This document shows positions 25,419-46,153 of a stretch of DNA of 64,000 nt, piece after piece. Numbering within the stretch: position 1 is the first letter of the stretch; each line of letters starts with the position of its first letter. The translations under genes and the position numbers were made by a program. The stretch lies in NCBI RefSeq assembly GCF_024223415.1, contig NZ_CP100500.1; one strand, written 5' to 3'. Origin of the DNA: Escherichia coli. Its GTDB lineage: Bacteria; Pseudomonadota; Gammaproteobacteria; Enterobacterales; Enterobacteriaceae. The notes under the pieces are model-generated. The model worked only from the letters and a program-made list of their open reading frames with translations. It was not told the DNA's origin and did not search any database.

Positions 25419-27614
25419 ATGAGCATTCTCTCCATCCACGGCGTTCGCAGTTATCAGGGCGAAAGGCCAGTGGAGTTCGACTTGAGTAAGTATGTCACTC
25501 TTATCTATGGACAAAACGGCTCAGGAAAATCAACCGTTTCTGGTTACTTTTATAAGCATGGTCGTCCAGATTACAGCCAGTGCAGCCTGCGACCTCCACT
25601 GGATATGAACTACCTGGTGTTTAATCAGGAGTATGTAGACGATATTTTCAGCCAACCTTCTCAGCCGGGCATTTTCACTTTAAATAGTGAAAATGCAGAA
25701 ATTAAAACTGAAATAGATGCTCTGGAAGCGGAGAGTAAAGTTTTGTTTGCCCGGCGTGATGCTTTGGACGTGCAAAAACGCGACGTTGAGGGCATGGAAG
25801 AAAGTATTAAAAATGGCTCCGCAAAACAGATTTATAGTTCTACCGCAGAAATCAGAAAAACAGATTTATGGGATTTGATGTCTGGAACTAAACAGACCGA
25901 CAAACTTTTTCAGACCATCCTTGAACACACTGAAGTCGAAGATACTTCGACGCAGGAATTAACCGAAGAACTACACCGACTTGAAGCCAGTAAAGGCAAC
26001 CCTTACGCTTTGCTCGAAGCATTGCCAGCATCCCCTTTGAATGACAATGATATTGCGCTATTGATGCAACCTCTTATTCCAGCAGGTGATAGCCGTCTTG
26101 CTGCCGCAATTAACCAATTGGGCAACATTGACTGGGTGAGGAATGGACAGCAGTGGCTGAGTGATGACATTTGCCCATTTTGTCAAACGCCGATAGATGC
26201 CCGGCAACTTCAACAGGAAATCACTGCCCTTTTTGATACCTCATGGGAAGCTGCGATGGACCAGTTGCGGGAACTTCAGGCGCGATATCAATTCTGGCAC
26301 GATAAACCCGAACATATGCGGCAGTTAATAAAAACGTGTCCGTTAGTTGATCAGGAACATCCTGTTTATCTCTATCTACTTGAACTGGAGCAGGCGTATC
26401 AAAGAAATAAATTGCATATCGATGAGAAATTGACATCACCCTCTGCGTCGATTGCTGTTGAGGATCTTTCTGCTCTGGCTGGCAATGTCTCTGTGCAGAT
26501 AGCCAGTATTAATACAATAATAAGCGAACATAACCGAAAGGCTGAAAATTATCAGACTGAACGGGTTAGACTGAAACAGAGACTACTCAGTCATATCCGA
26601 AAACTGGCTACCGATACGATAATTAACCATGATGAACAACTAGCAGAACTTGCTGAAAAATTGGCAAAATTAACGGTGTCTCGGGATGAAATTACGGCCC
26701 AGCTTGATACGCTGAACGCAATTATTCGCGGTAAATCCAGCCTGATCGTCAATACGCAGGAAACGATTGAACGTATTAATCACAGCTTGGATAGCCTTGG
26801 AATCACTGGATTCCGCATTGCTCCCTATGACGATCGGGATGATTATCGTCTGGTGAGGGAAGGTGAGAACAGCGATACGCCTGTTTTTAGTAGTCTGAGT
26901 GAAGGGGAAAAGACGCTGATTGCTTTTCTCTATTTTCTGGAGACTTGCACAGGGAGAAAAAGTCGTGATGACAATGACCAACGAAAACGTTTAATTGTCA
27001 TTGATGATCCTATATCCAGCCTGTCGCAAAACTATGTTTTTGAAATAGCATCGTTGATCCAGCATCAGGTTATACGTGCCAGAATTGGTGAGAAAGTGAT
27101 TATTCTGACGCACAGCCTGTTTTTCTTTCAGGAGTTACTGCTTTCTGCGGAACGGAAGAAAAGGGCAGCGGGTTCTTGCCCACCAGAATGGACGCTTTAT
27201 CGGGTATCCAAATCCTTACATAGTTCTGCTTCCCTTGTTTCCGAAAAAGAATTACTGAACGACTATCAGGCACTCTGGTATGTCTTACGCCACGCCCAAA
27301 AAGATGACATTGCCAGTGTGGTGATCCCAAATACGATGCGGCAAATCCTTGAATACTATTTTGGTTTTTCGGGGAAAAGTGAGACGCTTCACCGGGCGCT
27401 TGAAACACTGGCGAGCGGGCCTGAAGGTGAACCTGGTTTCCGTATATTTGCTCGTTATCTAAATCGACATTCTCACCAGGATGCCCGCAATATCTCTCTT
27501 CATGAGGGGGCTTCGGTTGAACGCTATCTTACCTGGTTTAAGAAAGTATTCGAGGCGGCAAAGGATGAAGAGCATTACACATCAATGATGGAAAAGACGA
27601 CACAAACGACCTGA
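25419..27614 (+). CDS. ABC-type (SMC/RecF-like) ATPase, candidate RloC/PrrC-like anticodon-nuclease family defence protein
   Basis: Walker A GQNGSGKST at N-terminus, Walker B/D-loop LIVIDDPISSLS and H-loop ILTHS ~500 aa later, CPFC (CxxC) in the intervening predicted coiled coil, ~170-aa C-terminal domain. Confidence 0.45.
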   Translation: MSILSIHGVRSYQGERPVEFDLSKYVTLIYGQNGSGKSTVSGYFYKHGRPDYSQCSLRPPLDMNYLVFNQEYVDDIFSQPSQPGIFTLNSENAEIKTEIDALEAESKVLFARRDALDVQKRDVEGMEESIKNGSAKQIYSSTAEIRKTDLWDLMSGTKQTDKLFQTILEHTEVEDTSTQELTEELHRLEASKGNPYALLEALPASPLNDNDIALLMQPLIPAGDSRLAAAINQLGNIDWVRNGQQWLSDDICPFCQTPIDARQLQQEITALFDTSWEAAMDQLRELQARYQFWHDKPEHMRQLIKTCPLVDQEHPVYLYLLELEQAYQRNKLHIDEKLTSPSASIAVEDLSALAGNVSVQIASINTIISEHNRKAENYQTERVRLKQRLLSHIRKLATDTIINHDEQLAELAEKLAKLTVSRDEITAQLDTLNAIIRGKSSLIVNTQETIERINHSLDSLGITGFRIAPYDDRDDYRLVREGENSDTPVFSSLSEGEKTLIAFLYFLETCTGRKSRDDNDQRKRLIVIDDPISSLSQNYVFEIASLIQHQVIRARIGEKVIILTHSLFFFQELLLSAERKKRAAGSCPPEWTLYRVSKSLHSSASLVSEKELLNDYQALWYVLRHAQKDDIASVVIPNTMRQILEYYFGFSGKSETLHRALETLASGPEGEPGFRIFARYLNRHSHQDARNISLHEGASVERYLTWFKKVFEAAKDEEHYTSMMEKTTQTT

Positions 27615-29132
27615 TTAACAACAGAAGAGGACCATCACCCCGGGATTAACCGTTAGCAGTTCGGCAAAGAGCGCATGTGCTGGCACACGTGCTCCCAGCG
27701 ACCAAAACGGAAACGCAGATACTGGTGAACCAGCACAGTTTTCTGTTTCATACCGGGCTCCTTTCTTTCGACGCCGACAAGCTGTCGGCGAGCCCCGTAC
27801 ACCTCGTACGAGCGTGACTATCGTGTAGAGGCTAAGGATCCCGGGGGATGGCTTCCGCTATCGTAGGCGATTTCATTTGATGATTCAATCTTTGCTTTGG
27901 ATAACAATTAATTGAGATGGTCGTATTTTAGTATTAGCACTGTATGTCTTAGCTATAGTGCTGCTGAAATGACCAATTCGGGAACCGTGATGGTTTCCTG
28001 GAAACTCTCTTGCTTATTTTACGATGCTGGCCGATTATCACAAAACGTTGCTTAAACGCTGATTGGATATGGTGCTTTGTGGCAGTCATTCGCTTGTCTG
28101 ACGTTGCCATGGCTTACATTTGATGTAGCCAATGTAGAAGCCGCTTGGTGAATTGTTCTATGACATGGTCTACTACTTCGTTGTGGAAAATGAAGATGCG
28201 GTACCGGGTATGTACCATTGATGGTGAGAGGCTTATCGACGAATGGACCGTACGATATTGCTTGGCTGGAAAGGTGTGTGAAGCATTGTAGATTTACATT
28301 CACAAAATCGCGAGAAAATCTACAAACAACTCTATTTCCAGAAAAATGAGTTTCCCCTTTCTGCGCCAGAAATAAAGGCGTAATCTCCCTCCTGCACTAT
28401 GTTGTCGTGGACAACTCCCTTGCTTCATGGTCTGCAAGAAGCCCCTGATTTATCAGGATGACCAGCCCTTTCTACCGGTACGACCTCCGCAATACCGGAA
28501 CGCGAAAGCGTTTGAGGCTAAGAGTACATACACATGAACGGCTCCATCGTCATCGCTTAACGGCAACAGCCTTCACCGGCTGAACGGCCTCTCTTTGCCG
28601 GAATTTTCCTGGCCCACTTATACCCTGCTGATAACCAGCGCCTTTTTACATGACGGGCTGCGGCCTGCATTGCCGAAGGCTTTGCTGCCGCGTGACCGTC
28701 ATCCTGCACCAGAGTGTTAATTTTCAGACCCTGCGCCAGACCAGGGCGTCAGTCGCTCACGCGCAGTGAGAGACTGACGCCCGCAGAAATTTCCATCTGC
28801 ACCAGTCATATCAACTGTTCCAGCCACAGGCGAGCTTCTGACGTCGCTTTTCAGCATTTATCTCAACCATTCATTCACAAAAGGAGAACATGAGCCAGTA
28901 CCGGAGGAGGACCACCAGGACGGTCCGGGGGATGACCAGCTCACGCTGGCGGCTGCTCTGAGAGCACAACCGATACCCCGCAAAACCTCAACAGCCGTCG
29001 CCCCGGCGCTCAGGTACTGCTCGCAGCCCCGACAAAAATCAGGGGCTATCGGCCTACGCGCCGGGGAAAGCTGTATCCGTTGTTTGTTGTGGTTTTGTGA
29101 AAATCAGGAGCGAGAGAAGAGGAAAACGTAAA

Positions 29133-30014
29133 ATGGGTATGCTGGAAAGAGAGATGAAAAACCTGGCGCGGCAGGCTGGCGGGTCGCACAAGACTGTCCA
29201 TGACCGTATCGCCATGGCAGGACGTTTCTGCGAACGCCTGATGGAACTGAACGTTCAGATACGCTATGTCCACCATTTAAAGGCGAAGCATATTGAGGCG
29301 TATATTCAGATGCGGCTGGCGCAGGGGATTCAGAAAAATACGCTGCATAACGAAACGGCGGCTATCCGTAAAATCCTGACGCAGGCCGGGCGCGAAAAGC
29401 TGGCGCAGAGTGAACGGATATCGAATAAATCGCTGGGGCTGGCTGGCGTATCCCGCAATGGTACGCGGAAAGCCATCACGCCGGAATATTATCAACAGAT
29501 GGCAGAGGCTGCCCGGCTGAAAGATGCGGGGCTGGCGGCGGCGCTGGAACTGACGCGGCTGATGGGGCTACGCTCTCAGGAGGCAGTACGCTGTTCCGGT
29601 TCGCTGAAAACCTGGCGCGAAGCACTGGAGAAAGGTGATACCCGGCTAACCGTGGTACTCGGTACCAAAGGTGGACGGCCCCGTGACACGATTATTCAGG
29701 ATACTGGCGCAGTTAAACAGGCGCTGGATAAGGCCATCGTGGTGGCAGAACGGCGCAACGGCAGGCTGATTGATGCGGCGAGCCTTAAACAGGCAATGAA
29801 ATACTGGCGCAACCAGACTTTGCGTATGGGGCTGACGGGCAAATACTCCCCGCACTCACTGCGCTACGCCTGGGCGCAGGACGATATCTGCCGGTATCTG
29901 GCGCAGGGGTTCAGCGAAAAAGAAGCGCTGGCGATGGTGGCAATGGACCTAGGGCATGGCGACGGGCGTGGTCGCTGGGTGAAGCAGGTGTATGCACGGA
30001 ATGATGAAGCGTGA
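29133..30014 (+). CDS. Small tyrosine recombinase-like protein (ORF track start 29097 is GTG)
   Basis: C-terminal catalytic-like residues: ...GLRSQE..., TVVLGTKGGRPRD, HSLRYAWAQ (HxLR), MDLGHGDGRGRWVKQVYAR (LGH...Y); SD-like gaggaaaa upstream of ATG 29133. Confidence 0.5.
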   Translation: MGMLEREMKNLARQAGGSHKTVHDRIAMAGRFCERLMELNVQIRYVHHLKAKHIEAYIQMRLAQGIQKNTLHNETAAIRKILTQAGREKLAQSERISNKSLGLAGVSRNGTRKAITPEYYQQMAEAARLKDAGLAAALELTRLMGLRSQEAVRCSGSLKTWREALEKGDTRLTVVLGTKGGRPRDTIIQDTGAVKQALDKAIVVAERRNGRLIDAASLKQAMKYWRNQTLRMGLTGKYSPHSLRYAWAQDDICRYLAQGFSEKEALAMVAMDLGHGDGRGRWVKQVYARNDEA

Positions 30015-30195
30015 TTTTTTGCTGGCGCAGCGAAAGGAAAAAGGCCAAAGGGTAAAGGTGGGTTAAGGGTAACAGCTCCTTACCGGAAAGGGCCAAAGGG
30101 TTGGGACTGGCGCAGATCGACGTCTATCCACGGATATCTGGCGCAAATAAAAAGCAGATCCCTGATGCAGTGGATCTGCTTTCCGGCATTGTCCG

Positions 30196-31502
30196 TTAGC
30201 TGGCGCAGGCCGCCTGAATCTGCCTGTCATACCGATACGGCGGGATAAATTTCTGCCGACAGGCGTCGAGATAATCCGACCACCACTGCATCATCTGTGT
30301 GCGCTCGTCGAGGTGCTCCGCCTTGTGGATATACGCGGCACGAACGTGATTACGCTCCTGATGGCTCATTTGTCGCTCCACGGCGTCTTTTGACCAGCGC
30401 CCGGACTCGATCAGCGCACTACAGGCCATCGTGCGGAAACCGTGACCGCAAACATCTGCCTGTGTGTTGTAGCCCATAACCCGCAGTGCTTTGTTGATGG
30501 TGTTTTCGCTCATCGGCTTACGCGGATCGTGGTCGCCGGGAAACAGTAACTCACTACTGCCGGACAACAGTTTTAACTGTTTGAGTATTGTCACCGCCTG
30601 CGCTGACAACGGCACCAGATGCTGCATCTTCATCTTTGCGCCGCGATTTGAATAACGCACGCCCGGAATCGGCTCCCGCTCCGCCGGGATGGTCCACATT
30701 GCGCCATCCAGATTGATCTCCGTCCAGCGGGCAAAACGTAGCTCGCTGGAACGGATAAAGATCAGCAGATTAAGCTGTACCGCCAGACGGGTTAACAGCC
30801 TGCCGGAATAGCCTTCAATACGCTCCAGCATCTCCGGTATTTTCTCCAGCGGCAGGGCGGGGTAGTGGTTTTTGGGCGGCGGTGCGATAGCCCCGGTCAG
30901 ATCGTTCGCCGGATTGCTGTCGATTATCCCCTCCTGCACCGCGTAACGCATGATTGCCGTGGTGCGCTGCTGAATCCGTGCAGCGGTCTCCAGCGTACCT
31001 TTTCGTTCCGCCACCCGCAGCGGGATCAGCAGATCGGCAGTTTTCAAATCAGAGACCGGAATTTGCCGATCAGTGGAAAAACATGCAGCTCCAGCGAGCG
31101 CAGGACTTTGGCGGCATGGGCTTCATTCCAGCGGATATTGCCCGCTACCCACTTACGGGCGATATCTTCAAAGGTGTTGCCGCTTTTACGTGCAAACTTC
31201 TCCTGCTGTTTTTTCACGCCGGGATCGCTGCCTGCGCTCAATACCGAGCGGGCATCCTCGCGCAGCTTGCGGGCATTTGCCAGAGAAACGGCCGGGTAAG
31301 CACCAAACGCCAGCTTCTTCTCTTTACCGCCGAAGCGGTACTTGAGGTGCCAGAGTTTAGATCCGTTGGGCTTTATCAGCAGGTACAGACCCTGCGCATC
31401 GCTGAGTTTCCAGGATTTATCAAGCGGCTTTGCATTACGGATGGCGGTATCGGTGAGGGACATAGTGGGGCTCCATAGTTTATCGAACCGACGGGCCCCC
31501 AA
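30196..31502 (-). pseudogene. P4-type tyrosine integrase split by a frameshift near 31045-31060
   Basis: N-terminal ORF (31044..31502) ...LKYRFGGKEKKLAFGAYPAVSLANARKLR...VFPLIGK; C-terminal ORF (30196..31047) ...ADLLIPLRVAERKGTLETAARIQQR...HGFRTMACSALIESG...; the two pieces are in different frames. Confidence 0.8.
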
Positions 31503-37189: not shown

Positions 37190-38074
37190 TCAGAACAGGT
37201 GATCCCACAGTGTGACCAGCAGGTGGATAATGCGGTCCCGGGTTTTGCGCAGAAGCTGTAACATCCAGGCCGGAAAACTGAAACGGGCAACGGCGTCGTC
37301 AAAACTTTTCCCGATGGTTTCACCAAAAGTCTGTTGTGCGTGTTTCCGGGCCTGTTCAGAGCGGTTTTCCCCCCGGATATGTGAATAAACCGCACTGGTT
37401 GCCTGTGGTGGCAGTGCGTGGATCATCAGCGACACAAACGCCGGAAGGTTCCAGCCGACAGGTGCGGCAACGGAGAGTACCGGAAATGATGAAGGGAACA
37501 GGGTTGCCACCCGGGCTGTCACCGTCGCCAGTGAGAGCGCCTGCTGACGGGACGGGCATTTTTCTGTGTCGTTCCATTCTTCAGCAGGAAACACGCGATC
37601 GGCATGGCTGAGAACAAACAGAAAACGCGAGGGATCTGCACCTTCATTCAGTAAAAACTGATGCATGGCAATATCAGCAGCATACGCACGTTCATCAGCC
37701 CGCAGGATCCAGATAATCAGATCCAGTTCGGGCAGTAACTGACTGTAAAGTGCCCGGTATTCCTGATCATGCTGTGGTGTTTCGCCAGTGCCGGGCAGAT
37801 CGACCAGCGTCATTCTTCGTTCACCGGGCTGAAAGGTAAGACGATGAGCCTGACGGGTGCAGCCGTTCAGCGGATGCGTGGCGCAGACACGGGACTGAAA
37901 AATGGCATTGCACAGGCTGCTTTTTCCGGCACCGGATTTACCCATAATGCCAATAACGGGTTCGTACTGAATGACGCTGCGAAGATGTTCAAGGATTTTC
38001 TGGCGAATTTCTTCAGGAAGAAAGGTCAGATGTGACTTTACGTGTGCGGAGAGGGAAGAATGGCTGAATGACAT
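37190..38074 (-). CDS. GTPase of the YeeP/YkfA/YfjP family (50S ribosome-binding GTPase-like)
   Basis: G1 motif GIMGKSGAGKSSL, DLPG switch region; first gene of the CP4-like module. Confidence 0.8.
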   Translation of the reverse strand: MSFSHSSLSAHVKSHLTFLPEEIRQKILEHLRSVIQYEPVIGIMGKSGAGKSSLCNAIFQSRVCATHPLNGCTRQAHRLTFQPGERRMTLVDLPGTGETPQHDQEYRALYSQLLPELDLIIWILRADERAYAADIAMHQFLLNEGADPSRFLFVLSHADRVFPAEEWNDTEKCPSRQQALSLATVTARVATLFPSSFPVLSVAAPVGWNLPAFVSLMIHALPPQATSAVYSHIRGENRSEQARKHAQQTFGETIGKSFDDAVARFSFPAWMLQLLRKTRDRIIHLLVTLWDHLF

Positions 38075-38174
38075 ACCGTTATCCTGTTGATTTCACTGAA
38101 CCGGATCACATTAATCCGGCCTATCAGTCAGGTAATATGGACGTGAAAATTTTTCCATTGACGGGAAGAAGAGT

Positions 38175-39323
38175 ATGGCTAAAAACAAAGGTATCTGTCG
38201 GAATAAAAAATGCAGCAATCCTGTTTCAGAATTTGATGAGGCAAATGCCCTGAGGTTATGTGATGATCATTATCAGTTATGGAAACGAAATAAAGAGAAC
38301 CGTCGGGTCAGGAATATTTGTCGTATAATCAGTAAATATGACAAAAGTCTGGACCGGGAGATATTTGACAGAGTAATAGATGCTGCAAGAAATCAAACGG
38401 GAAAGAGAATTGTTGAGGACGCAAAAATATTACATCAATTGCGCAATTCAAAGCAAGTAAGAAAAAGTCTTCATAATGGAGTACTCCGGTCACGGGAATG
38501 GCTCAATACACAGGAGTTACTGAGAAGAAAAAATATATCTGTTACAGGTGACTCATTTAAATCTTACATAAAGGATATTGTCAGATTATATTGCTATAAG
38601 TTTCTCTACAGCAGAGAATATCTTAATGAAAACGCATACAAAAAACAATATCAGAGAGTTATTAACCCCAGAGAATTTAATGTTCCGATACTTCAACTTG
38701 AAGTTGCATGGATCAATAATAATTGCCGTTCAAGTGATTCAAGCTCTGATATTATCATCCTTCCCAGGATGATAAGAAGAATGGTTGTATTTAATGATAC
38801 GAAGATAAATAAACAATTAGAGGAAATGTTGGGGGGGATAGCACGAAAAAAAGTCGCAGTAAGGAATAAAGGCGGTCTCTATACCAGAATAAAAAAAGAA
38901 AATGATTTTCGTTCTATGGATAGATTTATGGTGGAAATCGAAAATATCATAAGACCTGAAATATTTCCGACATCAATTTACCCGCCTTTTTCACTTTCAT
39001 TTATCGAGAGAGAATTGCCACTACTGAATCTGGCGCACTCACAGTACAAAAGAGCAATAAGTAAAAAAGTGGCGAATTCAATTTTTTATACTTTGCGAAA
39101 AACTCACGTGGCATTATGGCTGCATCTTGAAATGTTTGCTCTTGTGGCATTCATCAAACTGTATACAGGAAAAGGGTTTGAATTCATGAAAAACATGTGT
39201 GTATTTATAGATTATGATAAAGGGATAATAAAATCCACGCATGAAGAACTGCTGAGTGAAATTAAGTGTAACATTCAGTTGAATTTAAAGGTGAATCCTG
39301 ATAATTTTCCTGAATTAATATAA
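38175..39323 (+). CDS. Hypothetical lysine-rich protein in very AT-rich DNA; N-terminal Cys/His cluster
   Basis: 382-aa ORF, N-terminus MAKNKGICRNKKCSNP...LCDDHYQLW; SD-like ggaag upstream; codon usage clearly foreign. Confidence 0.5.
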   Translation: MAKNKGICRNKKCSNPVSEFDEANALRLCDDHYQLWKRNKENRRVRNICRIISKYDKSLDREIFDRVIDAARNQTGKRIVEDAKILHQLRNSKQVRKSLHNGVLRSREWLNTQELLRRKNISVTGDSFKSYIKDIVRLYCYKFLYSREYLNENAYKKQYQRVINPREFNVPILQLEVAWINNNCRSSDSSSDIIILPRMIRRMVVFNDTKINKQLEEMLGGIARKKVAVRNKGGLYTRIKKENDFRSMDRFMVEIENIIRPEIFPTSIYPPFSLSFIERELPLLNLAHSQYKRAISKKVANSIFYTLRKTHVALWLHLEMFALVAFIKLYTGKGFEFMKNMCVFIDYDKGIIKSTHEELLSEIKCNIQLNLKVNPDNFPELI

Positions 39324-39904
39324 ATATACAATTCATGCTTTAGTAAAAATATATTGTTGTATGATGTTCAGGATGATGGTTTTAAATGGTGTTTATGATG
39401 TGAAAATATTAAATTTATATTACATTTTAATTATCGACAAAAAACACATAAAGAAATCTAAAGGGAATGAGCGTCAAATGAGCTGATATAGCGCCAGTTT
39501 GGTATGGTCATGTGATTTGATGATTAAAGCTTACGGATAATAACACTCCTCTGTGAGCCATATAAATGAGCATGCCATAATCGTCAGTTCAGAGATAAAA
39601 CTGACTGAATGATCTTATGTTATAGTAAGCAGTGTTTACCGGATACGATGACTTATCTCTCTCACATCATATGGATTCACTTTCATGGGGTAAAGCGATG
39701 GGACTACAGACGCTGATTATGATGGTTTGCTGTAAAGTTAGCACAAGTTTTTGCTGTACAGAATACGGAGTAAGAAAAATAATTCCAGAGTAAATCTGCT
39801 CTGCTTTTGAACAGAAAAGATTCATGCTTACCGTGAAAAACTGAAACCAACATTCAGTCTGCATGGATGTCTTAAGATGTTGAGAATGTCGGATATGGTA
39901 TTAT

Positions 39905-40060
39905 ATACACCTTTTCCATTAGGTCCTTTTATGTTTTCATTAAGTCGTTTTGTATGTATTCCTCCAGTGATTCATTAGTGCCTGTTTACGCATTTACACA
40001 CTTTTCCCATTAATCTCCTTTAAATGTGTTTCATTACGCATTGCTGTACACATTTTTGAA
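39905..40060. repeat. Two imperfect direct copies of a ~55-60-bp AT-rich unit
   Basis: acaccttttccattaggtccttttatgttttcattaagtcgttttgtatgtattcc vs acacacttttcccattaatctcctttaaatgtgtttcattacgcattgctgtacacattttt. Confidence 0.4.
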
Positions 40061-40981
40061 CTGATACACATCCAAGTTAGTAAACCTGTCAGTTCTGATT
40101 TTACGTTAACTAAATCAGTTTAATGCTGCTGTAAAACAATCCTTCCTGTTTAAGCAATCAATCTGCTATTCGATTTTACTGATGTGACGTTTAACCTTTC
40201 CTGAGCTTTGGTTGTTTGTGGTTTTTGGTTTGTGTTTCGACGTTAAGCTGAGAAAAGTATCTTTACGCTAAATCAACCCGAACTTTCCTGAGGTGATCTG
40301 ACGTTCTTTTCGATGTGCTTACGACGATTCTGTTAAACGACTTTCTGGATGTTTTGATAACAATCAGATTGAGGCATTAACGATTCCTGACGTTTTGCTT
40401 TTTCATGTAAGGTCATTGTTTTCGTCATGATGTGGTTTTTCTTCTTGCATTGCGAAAGTGTGATGATTGGTTTTGGTTTTTTGATTCAGATGAGATTTAC
40501 GTTATCGATGGTTAATCGTTTTTATGGTGAGTAGTGAAACGTAACATTTTCGGGATGAGAAAATCGATTCTGATGGTGATGGGGATGATCGTGTTACGGC
40601 GTTATCTGTAAACAGGTTTTAAACGTGTCATTCGCATTCGTGATTGAGTTGTGTGATTAAGCTGTAGGTTTTGGCGTTGTTGTTGATTTGCATTGCCAGG
40701 AAGCGTTCTGGTTGCGTTTCTGGTGTTTTGTTCGAATGTTCTGTGGATCCTTTTCCCTTCAGGCTTTTCTCGTCGTCCATGTCGTTTTTAAATCCATTCA
40801 TGCTGTTGTTGCGTGTTTTGCTGCTGTGTGCAGGATTATCTTTTCGTTCCGGGATGGTTTGTTCCGTTTCAATCACTCTTAATCAGAGAGTTGTAGCATT
40901 GCTTAATGACATGATGCCGTAAAGTTTTACCGCGGTGATTAATGATGTGAAGTCAATCCAAATCAACGGAGATCTCTCATC

Positions 40982-41713
40982 ATGAATCAACCAATACACA
41001 ATGCTTACTGGTTATCCCGTTTTGACAGCCTTCTCGACAGTGCCCTGTCGCAGCACCGTGCCGTCTCGTTAATCCGGGTGGATTTACGTTTCCCTGAGTA
41101 TATGCCTGTCACCATCATGGATCCCGATCCGGATTCAGCGGTGATTTCTCGTTTTTTCGAATCCCTGAAAGCCAAAATCCAGGCTTACCAGCGGAAAAAA
41201 CGACGTGCCAACAAGCGTGTGCGTGCAACCACTCTGCGTTATTTCTGGTGTCGGGAGTTTGGCAAGGAAAAAGGCAGGAAACATTATCACGTGATATTGC
41301 TGCTCAACAAAGATACCTGGTGCTCGCCAGGGGATTTCAGCGAACCATCTTCGCTGGCGACGATGATCCTGGAGGCATGGTGCAGCGCCCTGCATCTTGA
41401 GGCCTGGCAAGGCGATGGCCTGGTCCATTTTTCCAGGTGGACGCCTTCCCGTAAACCAGCATCGTCTGATGCTCGCCCTTCTTCCGATGACACGCCTTTG
41501 TCGGGTGGATGTTCTGATACCAGGAAGGCTTCAGAAAAAAAGCCGGGTGAAGCCGCTGTTCTCTGGATCAAGCGTGGTGATGTGGAAGCGCTGCAGAAAG
41601 CCCGGAACAGAGCCAGTTATCTCGTGAAATATGAGACGAAGCAGCATGACGGTTCCGGGCAACGTAATTATGGTTGCAGTCGTGGGCCGGGGCGTCTGCT
41701 GGATGGCAGGTGA
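40982..41713 (+). CDS. YagK/YfjJ-family protein (inovirus Gp2-like)
   Basis: 243 aa; ...SLIRVDLRFPEY...KHYHVILLLNKD... pattern recalled from CP4-element yagK/yfjJ genes. Confidence 0.55.
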   Translation: MNQPIHNAYWLSRFDSLLDSALSQHRAVSLIRVDLRFPEYMPVTIMDPDPDSAVISRFFESLKAKIQAYQRKKRRANKRVRATTLRYFWCREFGKEKGRKHYHVILLLNKDTWCSPGDFSEPSSLATMILEAWCSALHLEAWQGDGLVHFSRWTPSRKPASSDARPSSDDTPLSGGCSDTRKASEKKPGEAAVLWIKRGDVEALQKARNRASYLVKYETKQHDGSGQRNYGCSRGPGRLLDGR

Positions 41714-42069
41714 GCCCTGTAAAACGACATCCGGTGCCTGAGCTTATGCTACAGGACGTTGGCTGACGCCCTTAGCTCGTTTTCTGAAAAAGTCGTCCTG
41801 AAGTCATGCAACGGTATTTTTCTCTGCTTTCGCTCCTGGAAACACTCCGTCGGTAAAACCTTACTGTCCTGCTTAATGATGTGAACCGAAGTCAACGGAG
41901 ATCATTCATTCTGAACCTGCATCCGGTGTTCTGTCCCTTGTCGGTTACCTGATCTTCCCGTTCTGCCGCGGTTTTTCACTTATTCCATCAACCCCATACG
42001 CAAGCCATAACACGTCAGCGCATCCACGGGCAGGACGCGTTGTGGGCTGCGTATAACGGAACATATCTT

Positions 42070-42642
42070 ATGAATGCTATCCCTTATTTCGACTATAGCA
42101 TGGCGCCCTTCTGGCCATCTTATCAGAACAAAATCATCGGCGTTCTCAACCGTGTGTTGCGCGAGCAGTCCTGCTCCCGAATACGGCGGATCCTGCTTCG
42201 TCTGCCGGGGGAACATGGCAACATCTTCAGCGACAGAAAAACCTGGTTCGGTATGGCCTTTATCGAAACCGTCAGTGCGCTGATGAATGCAACACCCGGA
42301 CGTGACCTCTGCTGGCTCCTGACTCGTCATCCTGAAAAACCGGAATACCACGTGGTGCTGTGCGTCAGACAGGAGTATTTCGACGGCCCTGAACTGGATC
42401 GGCTGATTCTGGATGCCTGGAGCAACGTACTGGGCTTCGCGTCACCGGGTGAAGCGGCACCGTACCAGAAACAGATAACCCGGGATGTGGTGCTGGACAG
42501 TTGTTCACCGGACTGCGAAGAGAGACTCAAAGAGCTGATATGGGCGTTCAGTGATTTCGCCCGCGATCATCGTGGTGTGCGCGATCCGGAAGCCCGTTAC
42601 CTCGCCGGTAATCCCTGGTATCCCGTAGCAGGCCAGCTCTGA
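42070..42642 (+). CDS. Second YagK/YfjJ-family paralog (ORF track start 42040 is TTG; ATG 42070 preferred)
   Basis: Starts MNAIPYFDY... parallel to MNQPIHNAY... of the first paralog; ...RILLRLPGEHG...EYHVVLCVRQEY... Confidence 0.5.
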   Translation: MNAIPYFDYSMAPFWPSYQNKIIGVLNRVLREQSCSRIRRILLRLPGEHGNIFSDRKTWFGMAFIETVSALMNATPGRDLCWLLTRHPEKPEYHVVLCVRQEYFDGPELDRLILDAWSNVLGFASPGEAAPYQKQITRDVVLDSCSPDCEERLKELIWAFSDFARDHRGVRDPEARYLAGNPWYPVAGQL

Positions 42643-42710
42643 AAGCTCAGCTCAGCAGATTCACCCGCATTTGCCCAACATTCATAAATCTCACAGAGGA
42701 CATTCTGACC

Positions 42711-42947
42711 ATGTTGACCTCAATGACAGGTCACGACAGCGTATTGCTGCGTGCCGACGATCCCCTGATCGACATGAACTACATCACCAGCTTCACTGGT
42801 ATGACCGACAAATGGTTTTACAAGCTGATCAGTGAAGGCCATTTCCCTAAACCCATCAAACTGGGGCGCAGCAGCCGCTGGTACAAAAGTGAAGTGGAGC
42901 AGTGGATGCAGCAACGAATCGAGGCATCACGAGGGGCAGCAGCATGA
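42711..42947 (+). CDS. alpA: AlpA-family prophage regulatory protein (HTH)
   Basis: 78 aa; ...LIDMNYITSFTGMTDKWFYKLISEGHFPKPIKLGRSSRWYKSEVEQWM typical AlpA. Confidence 0.8.
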   Translation: MLTSMTGHDSVLLRADDPLIDMNYITSFTGMTDKWFYKLISEGHFPKPIKLGRSSRWYKSEVEQWMQQRIEASRGAAA

Positions 42948-43060
42948 AACGTGTTGTAATGCCGGTACGCTGGCAATGTGCAAAATACCAGCGTTGGTAT
43001 TGTGGAAGCCGGCCCTGTCCCTGGTGCTGGCGACACTCCCGCTCATCTTTCTGCTGACAC
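42944..43060 (+). CDS. Candidate 38-codon Cys/Trp-rich small ORF translationally coupled to alpA
   Basis: ATG overlaps alpA stop (ATGA); translation MKRVVMPVRWQCAKYQRWYCGSRPCPWCWRHSRSSFC; below ORF-track size cutoff. Confidence 0.3.
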
Positions 43061-44882
43061 CCTCTGGTCAGCCAGCGGACTATCGTCCTTTCCTGACCGA
43101 TTCGTCATTCCATTCTTATTGATTATAACTGGCATTACACCGGTGCCGGCGTGCTTTTCTGTAGATCTGCACCGGTTTAACAAAATTCGACAAGGTTTGA
43201 AGGAGTATTCTGTGCAAATAAGCGAGGCCCTAATTTCAGAACCGGGGAAAATCCAGCGTTTTGTTCAGCAGGCGGTGGACCACTAGCCGCGTCTGCTGGC
43301 AGTCCACTTCACGCTTGATTCGGCTGAAGGGAATATTGACGAGGGGCAGATTCATGCATTCTGTACTGCCTTTTACCGACAGGTGCACGAGCGTATTACT
43401 GAACGTAATCACACGGCCAGCCCATCCTCGCCGGTGGTATTACGCTGGTTGCGGGAACAACATGGAGGAGCAACAATACGATGCCTGTTGCTGTTCAGCC
43501 AGGAGCTTTTCTGCCATCCGCGAGCCAGTGTGACAGTTGATGAAGAATGTTCACAACTGGTGGATTTACTACAACAGACTTGGCAGGTGATAAGCGCTGG
43601 CGGACAATGCCGGGTGGAAAAGCGTTTTCAGGTCGTCCGGGGTGATACATCTGGCCAGTATGTTGCGTTAAAAACAGTCGCATTGTCTCTGGGGTTACCG
43701 GTTGTGATCGCCATTACCCATCGTCCGGTACAGCGCTGTACATTGATTACAGCTCAGTGAATCAGCGCAGTTGTGCAGTCAACGAGGTTTTCTGGCTTTT
43801 CGTCGGTCATTCAGCATCATTAAACGGGTCTCTGCCTCTTTCTGTTCCTGTGGTGTCACTTCCCCGCACGGCTGACCGTTCAGGTTGTAACGGGCGCCAC
43901 CTGCTATTAACGCACGGTAATAGCGCGGAGACTGCACATAAGACGCCACTGCTGCATGTAATGTACCAGCGCCAAACGCCAGTTCTCGGATGGCGATATC
44001 CTGTATCAGGTCGTCAGGTATCCCCACTTTAAGTGGTTTTGTTTTTTTCCCGGTTGAATGACTCAGGCCAGAGTTCCACAAGACGAATAATGCGCTTACG
44101 GTTTTTGCTCTGGCGTTTTGTCATGTCGCCACGGTGTTTTATCAGCAGGTTTCTGTTTATCGTTCAACTGTGGTATCTGGTCACCGGCCTTCATTTTGTA
44201 TGCTGTGTCCGTTTTATTCTGCAGCGGCGTTGCCGGTGATTTACTGAAAATACCCTGCGGTTTACGGTTAATGGTCAGAGTTACCATCAATTTTGTTACC
44301 TCGCGCTGTCAATGGAAGTAGTACCTCATCCGATATCTGAAAATGTTTTCCGGTGGATGTTACAGCGAATTTCATGTAAGACATGTTGTTGTCGGTATTG
44401 TTCAGTACTGTGCGTTGTGAGCGTATTCGTTATCAGACAGAGGGGCAGGGAACAAACGTCAGAGGTTAAGGATATCCGGGAACAAATGGCGTAAACGGAC
44501 ATCTCAGTGCCTGAGAAACAGTACAGGTCAGGCCATCATGGCCTGCAAACAGAGCCCTGGCGACCCCGTGGCCGAAAACGAAACAATAACCCGCGCGCAG
44601 TGCGAGGAATCCGGATGTGAAGCAATCAGCAGGTAATATTAATGGCAGGACCAGCAGGTTCTTTAAACAAACGAACATGCTGTAATTGATATTTTGCTTA
44701 TTGTATTTTCTTTTTAGTTATTAAATTAATTTATTTACGAAAAATTTTCTGCAGATACAGGATGGGAATTCAGGGTGTCATCACGCCTTATGATGACACC
44801 CTTCCCCTGGTTGTGGAAAACCGAAGGATATATCAGGTTCAGCAACAAAATCAGTGAGCTGAAAGATACCAGTCCCCCAGCT

Positions 44883-45902
44883 TCAGCAGCTTTCACGTAA
44901 ACATAAACAGGGCTCAATGAATATCTGATTGCTCCAGTTACCTTCTTTAATTCGTTCCAGCAAAACATTTCCTGCTTCCAGACCAATTTTCCTGTGAGGA
45001 ACGGCCATTGTTGTTAATGATGGTTGGCAAACTTTGCTGACGTCACTGTCACCAAATCCTACTACGGCGAGCTCGTCTGGAACTTTGATCCGTCTTCGTT
45101 GACATTCATAGAGAACACCGCAGGCTAACTCATCTGACACACATACCAGGGCATCCAGTTCCGGCCATGCGAGCAAAAATTCCGGTAGTTGTGATGCTCC
45201 GGTGGAAAAAACAGGTGGCAGAGCAGCGTTAATAACACGGTTGGGAGACATATGATGGCGTAACATAGCTTTATACCATCCCTGTAAATGCTGCTGAAAG
45301 ATCCACTGTTCCTGGTTAGCGCATAGCAAACCGATATTCTGATAACCACGTTGTACCAGCATATCCGTCAGCTCGAACATTGCTGCAACATTATCAATAC
45401 CAATGTTGATATCTATCGGATCAGTACGAATGGCACCGATTTCTATAACAGGAATCGAGGCATTTTTGAGCAAGTGACGCACGGTACTATTATGCTCAAC
45501 ACTAAGCAAAATTGCTGCAGCGATATTAGAAGCCAGCAGGGTTTCCAGCAGTTTTTCTTCTTGTTCCAGACGATGGCGTGACTCAGCCAGGATTATTTGA
45601 TACCCCGCTGGTTGTAGCACATGTTGCAGCCCGGCAAACATTTCCGTGCATCCCGCTTCAGCCAGGTTTGGCACGACCATTGCGATCGTGTGTGAAGATG
45701 CCGATGCCAGTGCGCTTGCAGTGAGGTTGGGCATATACCCTAATTCATTAACTGCGGCTTCAATCTTCTCCCGCAATTTATCTGAAACTTGTTCGGGAGT
45801 GCGTAACGCTCTGGATACAGTCATTGTGCCAACTCCCGCGAGTTGCGCGACATCAGCAATAGTGACTTTACCTGTACTACGACGTTTTCGGGTTATTGCC
45901 AT
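44883..45902 (-). CDS. LacI-family transcriptional regulator
   Basis: N-terminal HTH VTIADVAQLAGVGTMTVSRAL plus periplasmic-binding-like sugar-binding domain; divergent from the PTS operon. Confidence 0.8.
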   Translation of the reverse strand: MAITRKRRSTGKVTIADVAQLAGVGTMTVSRALRTPEQVSDKLREKIEAAVNELGYMPNLTASALASASSHTIAMVVPNLAEAGCTEMFAGLQHVLQPAGYQIILAESRHRLEQEEKLLETLLASNIAAAILLSVEHNSTVRHLLKNASIPVIEIGAIRTDPIDINIGIDNVAAMFELTDMLVQRGYQNIGLLCANQEQWIFQQHLQGWYKAMLRHHMSPNRVINAALPPVFSTGASQLPEFLLAWPELDALVCVSDELACGVLYECQRRRIKVPDELAVVGFGDSDVSKVCQPSLTTMAVPHRKIGLEAGNVLLERIKEGNWSNQIFIEPCLCLRESC

Positions 45903-46153
45903 ACAAAATCCTGCTCAGCGACTACATATGGAGATCTTTTATTACTTATCATCAACGGCTTCCTGCACTGCCAGTAGCAGAGTATACCTCTTAATATCTG
46001 CCATAAGTCTGGATTTAATCAGTGAAATCTATTTTGATAGCGCTATCACAAATTCGAACAATACCTCCTGATAGCGCTATCTTTGTGATATTGATCGCAG
46101 ATATACCGTCGTTACTTGAATACATTCTGGTCATATAAATAAGAAATTAGGGG

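Follow-up and report, generated by a model that had tools for sequence, protein, structure and literature searches.

A constrained element repeated 5' of a Rep-like gene and of a hyp–alpA pair in Escherichia islands: a possible shared control region

Two genes related to yagK and yfjJ lie in tandem on the plus strand of the Escherichia coli DNA analysed here (contig NZ_CP100500.1, assembly GCF_024223415.1; the whole stretch of 64,000 nucleotides (nt) is hereafter the window), and a short motif recurs 5' of both, directly before the start codon of the first and well upstream of that of the second. The question raised by this locus is whether the motif is left over from duplication of a gene together with its upstream region, or is an operator that the two genes share and that is placed differently at each, the two possibilities offered in a preliminary description. 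We propose that the repeated element may act at the DNA level as a conserved control region, comprising an operator and perhaps a weak promoter, lying 5' of two transcription units of the island backbone. Judged from sequence comparisons, this proposal has about an even chance of being correct.

Both motif stretches are present where the preliminary description had placed them, upstream of the first and second paralog, and the distance from the second motif to the second ATG, given as ~160 nt, is 166 nt from the end of copy 2 to 42070; at copy 1, 7 nt lie between the end of boxB and the ATG at 40982. Pairwise alignment of 40918-40986 with 41852-41915 gave 76-77% identity with one 5-nt indel between the two conserved boxes. 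Local alignment of 40936-40986 with 41870-41915 scored 41, against 20.4 ± 2.0 (maximum 28) for 300 dinucleotide shuffles, so that the similarity stands about 10 standard deviations above the shuffles and is far more than a few chance bases. The core of the motif held up, but the repeat unit, at ~65 bases, is longer than had been claimed and reaches 5' into an inverted repeat. The element consists of the inverted repeat GGTAA-N4-TTACC, a variable 4-nt spacer, boxA (TGMTTAATGATGTGAA) and boxB (TCAACGGAGATC). An exact 13-mer, TTAATGATGTGAA, forms the core of boxA at 40939-40951 and 41873-41885, and the exact 12-mer of boxB occurs at 40963-40974 and 41892-41903; neither has another exact copy in the window. 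The string 'gcttaatga' at 40900-40914, originally counted as part of the motif, is not conserved in related loci and is probably a chance resemblance; it was rejected as a third boxA for the same reason. A third partial copy at the ribosome site of the second gene (AACGGA...ATGAAT) was also rejected, as 385 and 166 of 500 shuffles scored equally well, and a related ATTAAT...TTCACA motif 5' of a 188-amino-acid (aa) Rep-like gene of other islands was attributed to chance, being unconserved in locus L012.

Copy 1 (40918-40981, plus strand; defined by alignment, exact k-mers and metagenome diversity) begins with the inverted repeat CGTAA-AGTT-TTACC (40918-40931), followed by the spacer GCGG (40932-40935), boxA TGATTAATGATGTGAA (40936-40951), an 11-nt linker and boxB (40963-40974). 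The GGAG Shine-Dalgarno sequence of the first gene, which encodes 243 aa, sits inside this boxB. Copy 2 (41835-41905, plus strand; defined by alignment, exact k-mers and conservation in relatives) has a conserved 5' extension, CCTGGAAACACTCCGTC (41835-41851), and then the inverted repeat GGTAA-AACC-TTACT (41852-41865), the hypervariable spacer GTCC (41866-41869), boxA TGCTTAATGATGTGAA (41870-41885), a 6-nt linker and boxB (41892-41903). From copy 2 to the second gene, comparison of relatives marks 41906-42069 on the same strand as a variable leader or spacer, whose length in relatives ranges over 146-191 nt and which exists in at least three mutually unalignable versions. No start codon or open reading frame (ORF) follows boxB of copy 2 in any variant compared, and a small ORF started by this box was rejected, there being no ATG or GTG at a usable distance and the aligned CTG being CTT or CTC in other variants. 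Sequence variants of boxB or of the inverted repeat exist, for example GGAGTTC in loci L012 and L020. One metagenome variant (locus L087, 3662-3720) has lost ~165 nt, from just after boxA of copy 1 to about codon 47 of the 243-aa gene, and with them boxB and the start codon.

Selection on the element was assessed with a metagenome pattern scan in which only TTAC, TG and boxA were fixed. This recovered 120 loci, with 61-62 copy-1 forms and 76-77 copy-2 forms, and nucleotide diversity was computed among distinct sequences (n=49 for copy 1); the values from boxA to the ATG of copy 1 and on the boxB side of copy 2 are for positions that the pattern left free. At copy 1, diversity was 0.005 over the 30 nt from boxA to the ATG and 0.043 in the palindrome, compared with 0.209 in the upstream non-coding DNA and, within the 243-aa gene, 0.111 at third and 0.054 at first and second codon positions. 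At copy 2, it was 0.032 on the boxB side (20 nt), 0.098 in the left part of the block and 0.276 in the 4-nt spacer, compared with 0.175 in the leader and with 0.171 at third and 0.058 at first and second codon positions of the second gene (hyp). Across eight E. coli loci, mean pairwise identity was 0.88 in the copy-2 block (0.97-1.0 in its core), 0.56 and 0.64 in the flanks and 0.81 at third positions of hyp. Both copies are thus under strong purifying selection that exceeds the selection on the neighbouring proteins. In copy 2, boxB is not conserved as a translation signal, since every variant lacks a start codon and an ORF after it.

The constraint is unevenly distributed. The arms of the inverted repeat (GGTAA/TTACC) are constrained while its 4-nt centre is free to vary, and the 4-nt spacer before boxA is fixed in length but occurs as eight variants in nine loci, which makes it the most variable 4-mer among 787 windows of a ~900-nt alignment; the 38 distinct copy-2 sequences hold 10 forms of the spacer when it is read as the 5-mer after TTAC. 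At copy 2 this tetranucleotide (41866-41869) is flanked by invariant sequence, and its diversity in the metagenome set exceeds the synonymous value (0.276 against 0.171). Constrained arms, a free centre and a free spacer of fixed length are together the usual footprint of a protein-binding site. The element shows dyad symmetry, conservation beyond neutral (diversity 0.005-0.098 compared with 0.11-0.17 at synonymous positions) and a spacer fixed in length but free in sequence, as would be looked for in a protein-binding operator. The first 15 codons of the 243-aa gene (40982-41026) have a third-position diversity of 0.049, compared with 0.111 in the rest of the gene, and the constrained element may extend into the coding sequence.

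The position of the element is equally regular. In all 138 metagenome occurrences it was 5' of, and co-oriented with, either the 243-aa gene (copy-1 form) or the pair formed by hyp and an alpA gene (copy-2 form), and hybrids with the left part of one form and the right part of the other were absent (0 of 139 occurrences). Of 5,426 complete E. coli genomes, 1,894 contain copy 1, in every case where a 'Gp2 family' gene begins, and 1,876 contain copy 2, always in unannotated intergenic DNA. The element was absent from phage records and nearly so from plasmids; one plasmid record, CP088396.1, considered as a possible excised island, proved to be an IncF fragment. In a scan of one genome per species it was found in a single metagenome-assembled genome of the Enterobacteriaceae only. 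No element is present around K-12 yagK and yfjJ or at the Citrobacter and Pseudocitrobacter loci with homologous genes, which rules it out as a general feature of YagK/YfjJ genes; it is confined to Escherichia islands. Comparison with homologues elsewhere did not bear out an upstream motif common to the family. One Citrobacter locus (L009) has a long and a short paralog in tandem, 46 nt apart, without it.

The first gene (40982-41713, plus strand) encodes a HUH Rep-like protein of the YagK/YfjJ ('inovirus Gp2') family, assigned from Pfam, PHROG and alignment and named 'inovirus Gp2 family protein' in RefSeq. It matches PF11726 with 128.3 bits (gathering cutoff 25.8; E = 3.6e-37), PF23343 REP_ORF2-G2P with 41.3 bits (1.9e-10), and PHROG families of phage replication initiation. 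It contains H101-Y-H103 and a Tyr/Lys motif, SYLVKYETK, with Y213, and residues H101, H103, Y213, K216 and K220 are invariant in an alignment of seven members (this protein, K-12 YagK, YfjJ and four others), the set of motifs that would be expected of a catalytically competent HUH endonuclease. A search of the PDB with its sequence gave no match. An insert of ~35 residues rich in Ser, Pro, Asp and Lys (41440-41560; about residues 160-200) is absent from K-12 YagK, YfjJ and the other aligned members, and some E. coli variants of the protein have 214 aa.

The second gene (42070-42642, plus strand; 190 aa, 'hypothetical protein' in RefSeq) was placed by profile comparison. It has no match in Pfam, PF11726 being absent even at E <= 10, and BLASTP against the first gene product gave E = 0.003 over 48 aa at ~25% identity. 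Alignment of its family with the YagK family by hhalign gave 96.5% probability (E = 8.3e-10, 152 columns). A HMMER profile search of 1.8 billion protein representatives returned E. coli members and only two distant full-length relatives, P0077 (2e-18) and P0082 (1e-9), and none of the 42 matches of the full search was listed as a YagK-family protein. These two relatives are from Pseudocitrobacter/Citrobacter, the NCBI names for their own relatives are YagK/YfjJ or Gp2 proteins, and P0077 itself matches PF11726 above the gathering score (1.4e-10, 41.8 bits). By these profile links, the hyp product is best classed as a distant YagK/YfjJ paralog; its family is almost confined to E. coli. In place of H-Y-H it has E92-Y-H94 (Cys or Phe in distant relatives), and D162 and D166 align with the two Tyr residues of the family. 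Because the first HUH histidine and both tyrosines are replaced, it is probably catalytically inactive and not a nuclease. An AlphaFold2 model was of low confidence, its pLDDT of 51 making it unfit for a fold search.

The preliminary description spoke of tandem paralogs. The paralogy stands, on the hhalign probability and the intermediate sequences, but it is distant, and tandem adjacency is not the general state. The order Rep-like gene, hyp, alpA is kept in all related loci, and three architectures can be distinguished. In the window (type A), which the avian pathogenic E. coli (APEC) strain BEN2908 resembles, copy 1 and the 243-aa gene (YagK243) are followed by ~110 nt, copy 2, hyp and alpA. 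In type B, for example E. coli 042, there is no copy 1, and a different Rep-like gene of 188 aa (Rep188) precedes copy 2, hyp and alpA. In type C, copy 1 and YagK243 are followed by 2.5-9 kb of variable genes (a restriction endonuclease, pseudouridine-utilisation-like genes, insertion sequence (IS) elements and ORFs of unknown kind), ~1.5 kb of non-coding DNA, Rep188, copy 2 and hyp. Among 25 metagenome contigs with two copies the spacing was 933-937 nt in 16 and 4.1-10.2 kb in nine, order and strand being constant. In the window, two local alignments that overlap at GCTTTCGCTC locate a junction between the 3' flank of YagK243 and the 3' flank of Rep188 at 41826-41835; from this junction and the spacing survey, the tandem arrangement is the short form, without the cargo and Rep188. 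The cargo site in loci L030, L045, L059, L063, L064, L069, L088 and L095 corresponds to 41714-41835 of the window. Copy 1 travels with YagK243 even where hyp is missing, and copy 2 travels with hyp–alpA whichever Rep-like gene is upstream.

How might such an element act? We infer that a dimeric DNA-binding protein encoded by the island would recognise GGTAA-N4-TTACC together with boxA, held at a fixed distance of 4 nt. Candidates for this protein are the AlpA-like helix-turn-helix protein or a Rep-like protein acting as an autoregulator. The first unit under its control would be the 243-aa Rep-like gene and the second an operon of the inactive paralog and the AlpA-family regulator, so that binding would put both units under one switch; boxB of copy 1 would double as a ribosome-binding region. 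The alpA gene (42711-42947, plus strand; 78 aa) matches PF05930 (40.8 bits, cutoff 21; 2e-10) and the PHROG family 'excisionase and transcriptional regulator', and probably shares a transcription unit with hyp. Of the two possibilities first offered, a shared operator placed differently fits the evidence best, in view of the slow evolution, inverted repeat, fixed spacer and 5' co-oriented position of both copies, and we would place it midway between doubtful and likely. Several observations weigh against it. No sigma-70 promoter reached the threshold of the consensus scan on either strand at either copy, and on the plus strand the best candidates score 5-6 with a position weight matrix (PWM), less than the 7.1 that is the median over the window. 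BoxA and boxB lie 5 nt further apart in copy 1 than in copy 2, a difference not easily reconciled with one complex contacting both boxes, and the geometry of the copies is not identical, as copy 1 abuts a start codon and copy 2 lies 146-191 nt upstream of one. The literature searched on YagK/YfjJ/Gp2 and on AlpA binding sites gave no account of the element. Inspection by eye showed weak similarities to the sites of Fur, CRP, IHF, sigma-28 and sigma-54 and to the nick site of f1, all of which were discarded.

An alternative that we consider unlikely is that the HUH Rep-like enzyme recognises or nicks the element, which would then be an origin, a terminus or a site like oriT; in it the short hairpin GGTAA-N4-TTACC is followed by a conserved single-strand sequence, and direct copies bracket Rep genes and cargo in full-length islands. 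IS200/IS605 ends and many rolling-circle origins are built in this way, from a hairpin and conserved sequence beside it. The gene next to the element encodes HUH histidines and a Tyr/Lys motif that do not vary in the family, and matches phage replication-initiator families; the element adjoins Rep-like genes in both directions, 5' of YagK243 and ~30-60 nt 3' of Rep188, and two direct copies flank the variable cargo of type C islands. However, termination or recombination between copies would yield the hybrids that were absent from all 139 occurrences, and the cargo boundaries are not at the copies but after the 3' flank of YagK243 and ~1.5 kb upstream of Rep188. Nor can this be a nick site of the whole family, as K-12 yagK and yfjJ and the Citrobacter and Pseudocitrobacter homologues lack it. 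Two active origins in direct repeat would destabilise the DNA between them, yet the arrangement is common and stable, and the hairpin has only 4-5 bp. There is a slim chance that the copies form an ori/ter-type pair for rolling-circle copying or exchange of cargo, or an origin and an autoregulatory site for the excised island, with the dead paralog as a site-binding partner. On present figures it is highly improbable that the element is a functionless relic, either of an old tandem duplication of gene and upstream region or of a copied 5' end of the 243-aa gene. In keeping with such an origin, the two genes are paralogs, and the CTG of copy 2 aligns with the ATG of copy 1, the similarity running on through 'TGAA' as if the start region had been copied. 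The diversity figures have already largely refuted it: both copies evolve several-fold more slowly than synonymous sites and flanking non-coding DNA. Each copy also keeps its own fixed form, without concerted evolution or hybrids. The duplication followed by divergence that had been suggested at the outset is unlikely, because the gene pair predates the element (the Citrobacter pair exists without it), the element is specific to the Escherichia lineage, and the proteins are nearly unrecognisable as relatives, being far more diverged (~25% over 48 aa) than the DNA element at 76-77%.

Two further explanations concern transcripts. One, which seems to us distinctly unlikely, is a minus-strand promoter, with a -35 sequence TTCACA (the reverse of boxA), a 16-17-nt spacer that takes in the variable 4 nt, and a -10 sequence TAAGKT/TAAAAC in the inverted repeat; transcription from copy 2 would run antisense into the Rep-like gene upstream, at its 3' end, and that from copy 1 would be divergent. 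This is the best sigma-70 candidate in both regions (TTCACA-16/17-TAAGGT or TAAAAC; PWM 8.0-8.7), its spacer has the constant length and unconstrained sequence expected of a promoter, and a transcript from copy 2 would start within the conserved 5' extension (41835-41851). The scores are, however, close to the window-wide median of the best site per 220 nt (7.1; 90th percentile 9.5) and under the consensus-scan threshold, the -10 of copy 1 lacks the final T, and conservation of boxB and the linker is left unexplained. The DNA to the left of copy 1 is poorly conserved (diversity 0.209) and has indels, with no conserved product apparent. Minus-strand coding, as ORFs of 48 and 82 aa, was rejected: no position of the spacer is constant, and there are indels upstream. 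The other explanation, to which we give a slender probability, is that the element acts in RNA, as a motif of the 5' untranslated region, a translation-control hairpin, or a target on both mRNAs of a small RNA or an RNA-binding protein such as an island protein of the ProQ/FinO family, whose gene is often a neighbour. Pairing between boxA and the start-codon region can give copy 1 an AUG-sequestering hairpin (-23.2 kcal/mol, z = -1.6); in addition, the Shine-Dalgarno sequence is in boxB and third positions show unusual conservation over the first 15 codons of the 243-aa gene. This pairing has no counterpart in copy 2 variants such as that of BEN2908, though, and copy 2 and its variants fold no better than shuffles (z = +0.4, -0.1) and differently from each other; the variation is too small to reveal covariation. 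No match to Rfam 15 with E <= 1 was found on either strand of 38000-46000, and no terminator near the element reached threshold. With copy 2 fold z values near 0 as well, a small or structured RNA was rejected.

A control region of the kind proposed here would have parallels in known systems. Autoregulatory operators or iterons of Rep proteins occur near HUH initiator genes, for example the geminivirus Rep iterons that overlap the Rep promoter and the Rep-binding element of the adeno-associated virus p5 promoter. Like these, the present element immediately precedes a Rep-like HUH gene and has a second copy in the same island, and a binder of the Rep family, possibly the inactive paralog, is plausible. 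Unlike Rep iterons, it has one unit per site rather than a tandem array and no nick-site hairpin of the usual size, and other YagK/YfjJ loci lack it. Rolling-circle origins and HUH transposon ends, such as the Ff phage gene II origin, the LE/RE ends of IS200/IS605 and ori/ter of IS91/ISCR, offer a second comparison. Here too a HUH gene is flanked by two co-oriented small inverted repeats with conserved sequence, but there are no hybrid or junction products, the copy boundaries do not coincide with the variable segment, the stem is very short, and the gene does not recur as a mobile unit in unrelated surroundings. The element also recalls the AlpA/Vis-type circuits of P4-like and CP4-57-like islands and of Gram-negative phage-inducible chromosomal islands, in having a Gp2/YagK-like gene and then alpA near the island end, and an AlpA-family gene directly downstream of copy 2. 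Pseudomonas islands, too, have as a core feature a Gp2-like gene with alpA after it at the island end, and for them AlpA is cited as an activator of the integrase gene (10.1101/2024.08.29.610337). K-12 CP4-57, with the order alpA-yfjI-yfjJ, differs both in gene order (Rep-like, hyp, alpA here) and in lacking the element. The first gene shares PF11726 and 36-37% identity with K-12 YagK (CP4-6) and YfjJ (CP4-57), and the island is of the same type as theirs, with GTPase, DUF932, antirestriction and CbtA/YeeU neighbours; the nearby element, the adjacent short paralog and the ~35-aa insert set it apart. The element is new, in that neither Rfam nor the literature searched describes it, and in kind it would be an unsurprising cis-regulatory motif of a known island family.

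Genes of the YagK/YfjJ ('Gp2-like') and AlpA kinds belong to the core of genomic islands that are very common in enterobacteria and Pseudomonas. A constrained cis-element common to the Rep-like gene and the hyp–alpA operon would offer a starting point for working out what switches the island backbone on; it is suited to footprinting and to mutagenesis in reporters, and it suggests which proteins may bind. If it were a true Rep recognition site, these islands would be linked to rolling-circle mechanisms. For annotation, the 190-aa 'hypothetical protein' can be described as a probable inactivated HUH paralog, and a variable cargo bay can be placed between the copies.

The surrounding region is a common E. 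coli island of the CP4 type, with genes for a YfjP/YeeP-like GTPase, DUF932, antirestriction, CbtA/YeeU and DUF4942 proteins. To the left of the island, within 25419-31047, are a 731-aa AAA_13 ATPase (PF13166, 8e-104), an Integrase_1/Phage_int_SAM_2 gene (29097-30011) and a P4-type integrase (30199-31047, minus strand) that is apparently truncated at its N-terminus; no tRNA genes were found in the window. The stretch 38000-40900 is AT-rich (27-42% GC), with a strong excess of T on the plus strand at ~40200-40900 and no convincing gene in 39323-40982, and a ~1.5-kb non-coding stretch of similar composition precedes the 188-aa Rep-like gene in other islands. The minus-strand 82-aa ORF at 40628-40876 is annotated by RefSeq in a relative; the region is poorly conserved and has indels. 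Downstream of alpA, 43212-43760 (plus strand) holds a homologue of the 'putative phage-derived protein' UCP030791, which follows alpA in related islands; here a stop codon interrupts its frame at codon 25. The N-terminal half gives a weak alignment to the YagK family (hhalign 23%, E = 9e-4), and the protein may be a further, very divergent YagK relative. Beyond it, on the minus strand at 43782-44081, an ORF of 100 aa belongs to the ProQ/FinO family (PF04352, 3e-17) and looks truncated; in relatives this gene is either intact (159 aa in L014) or frameshifted.

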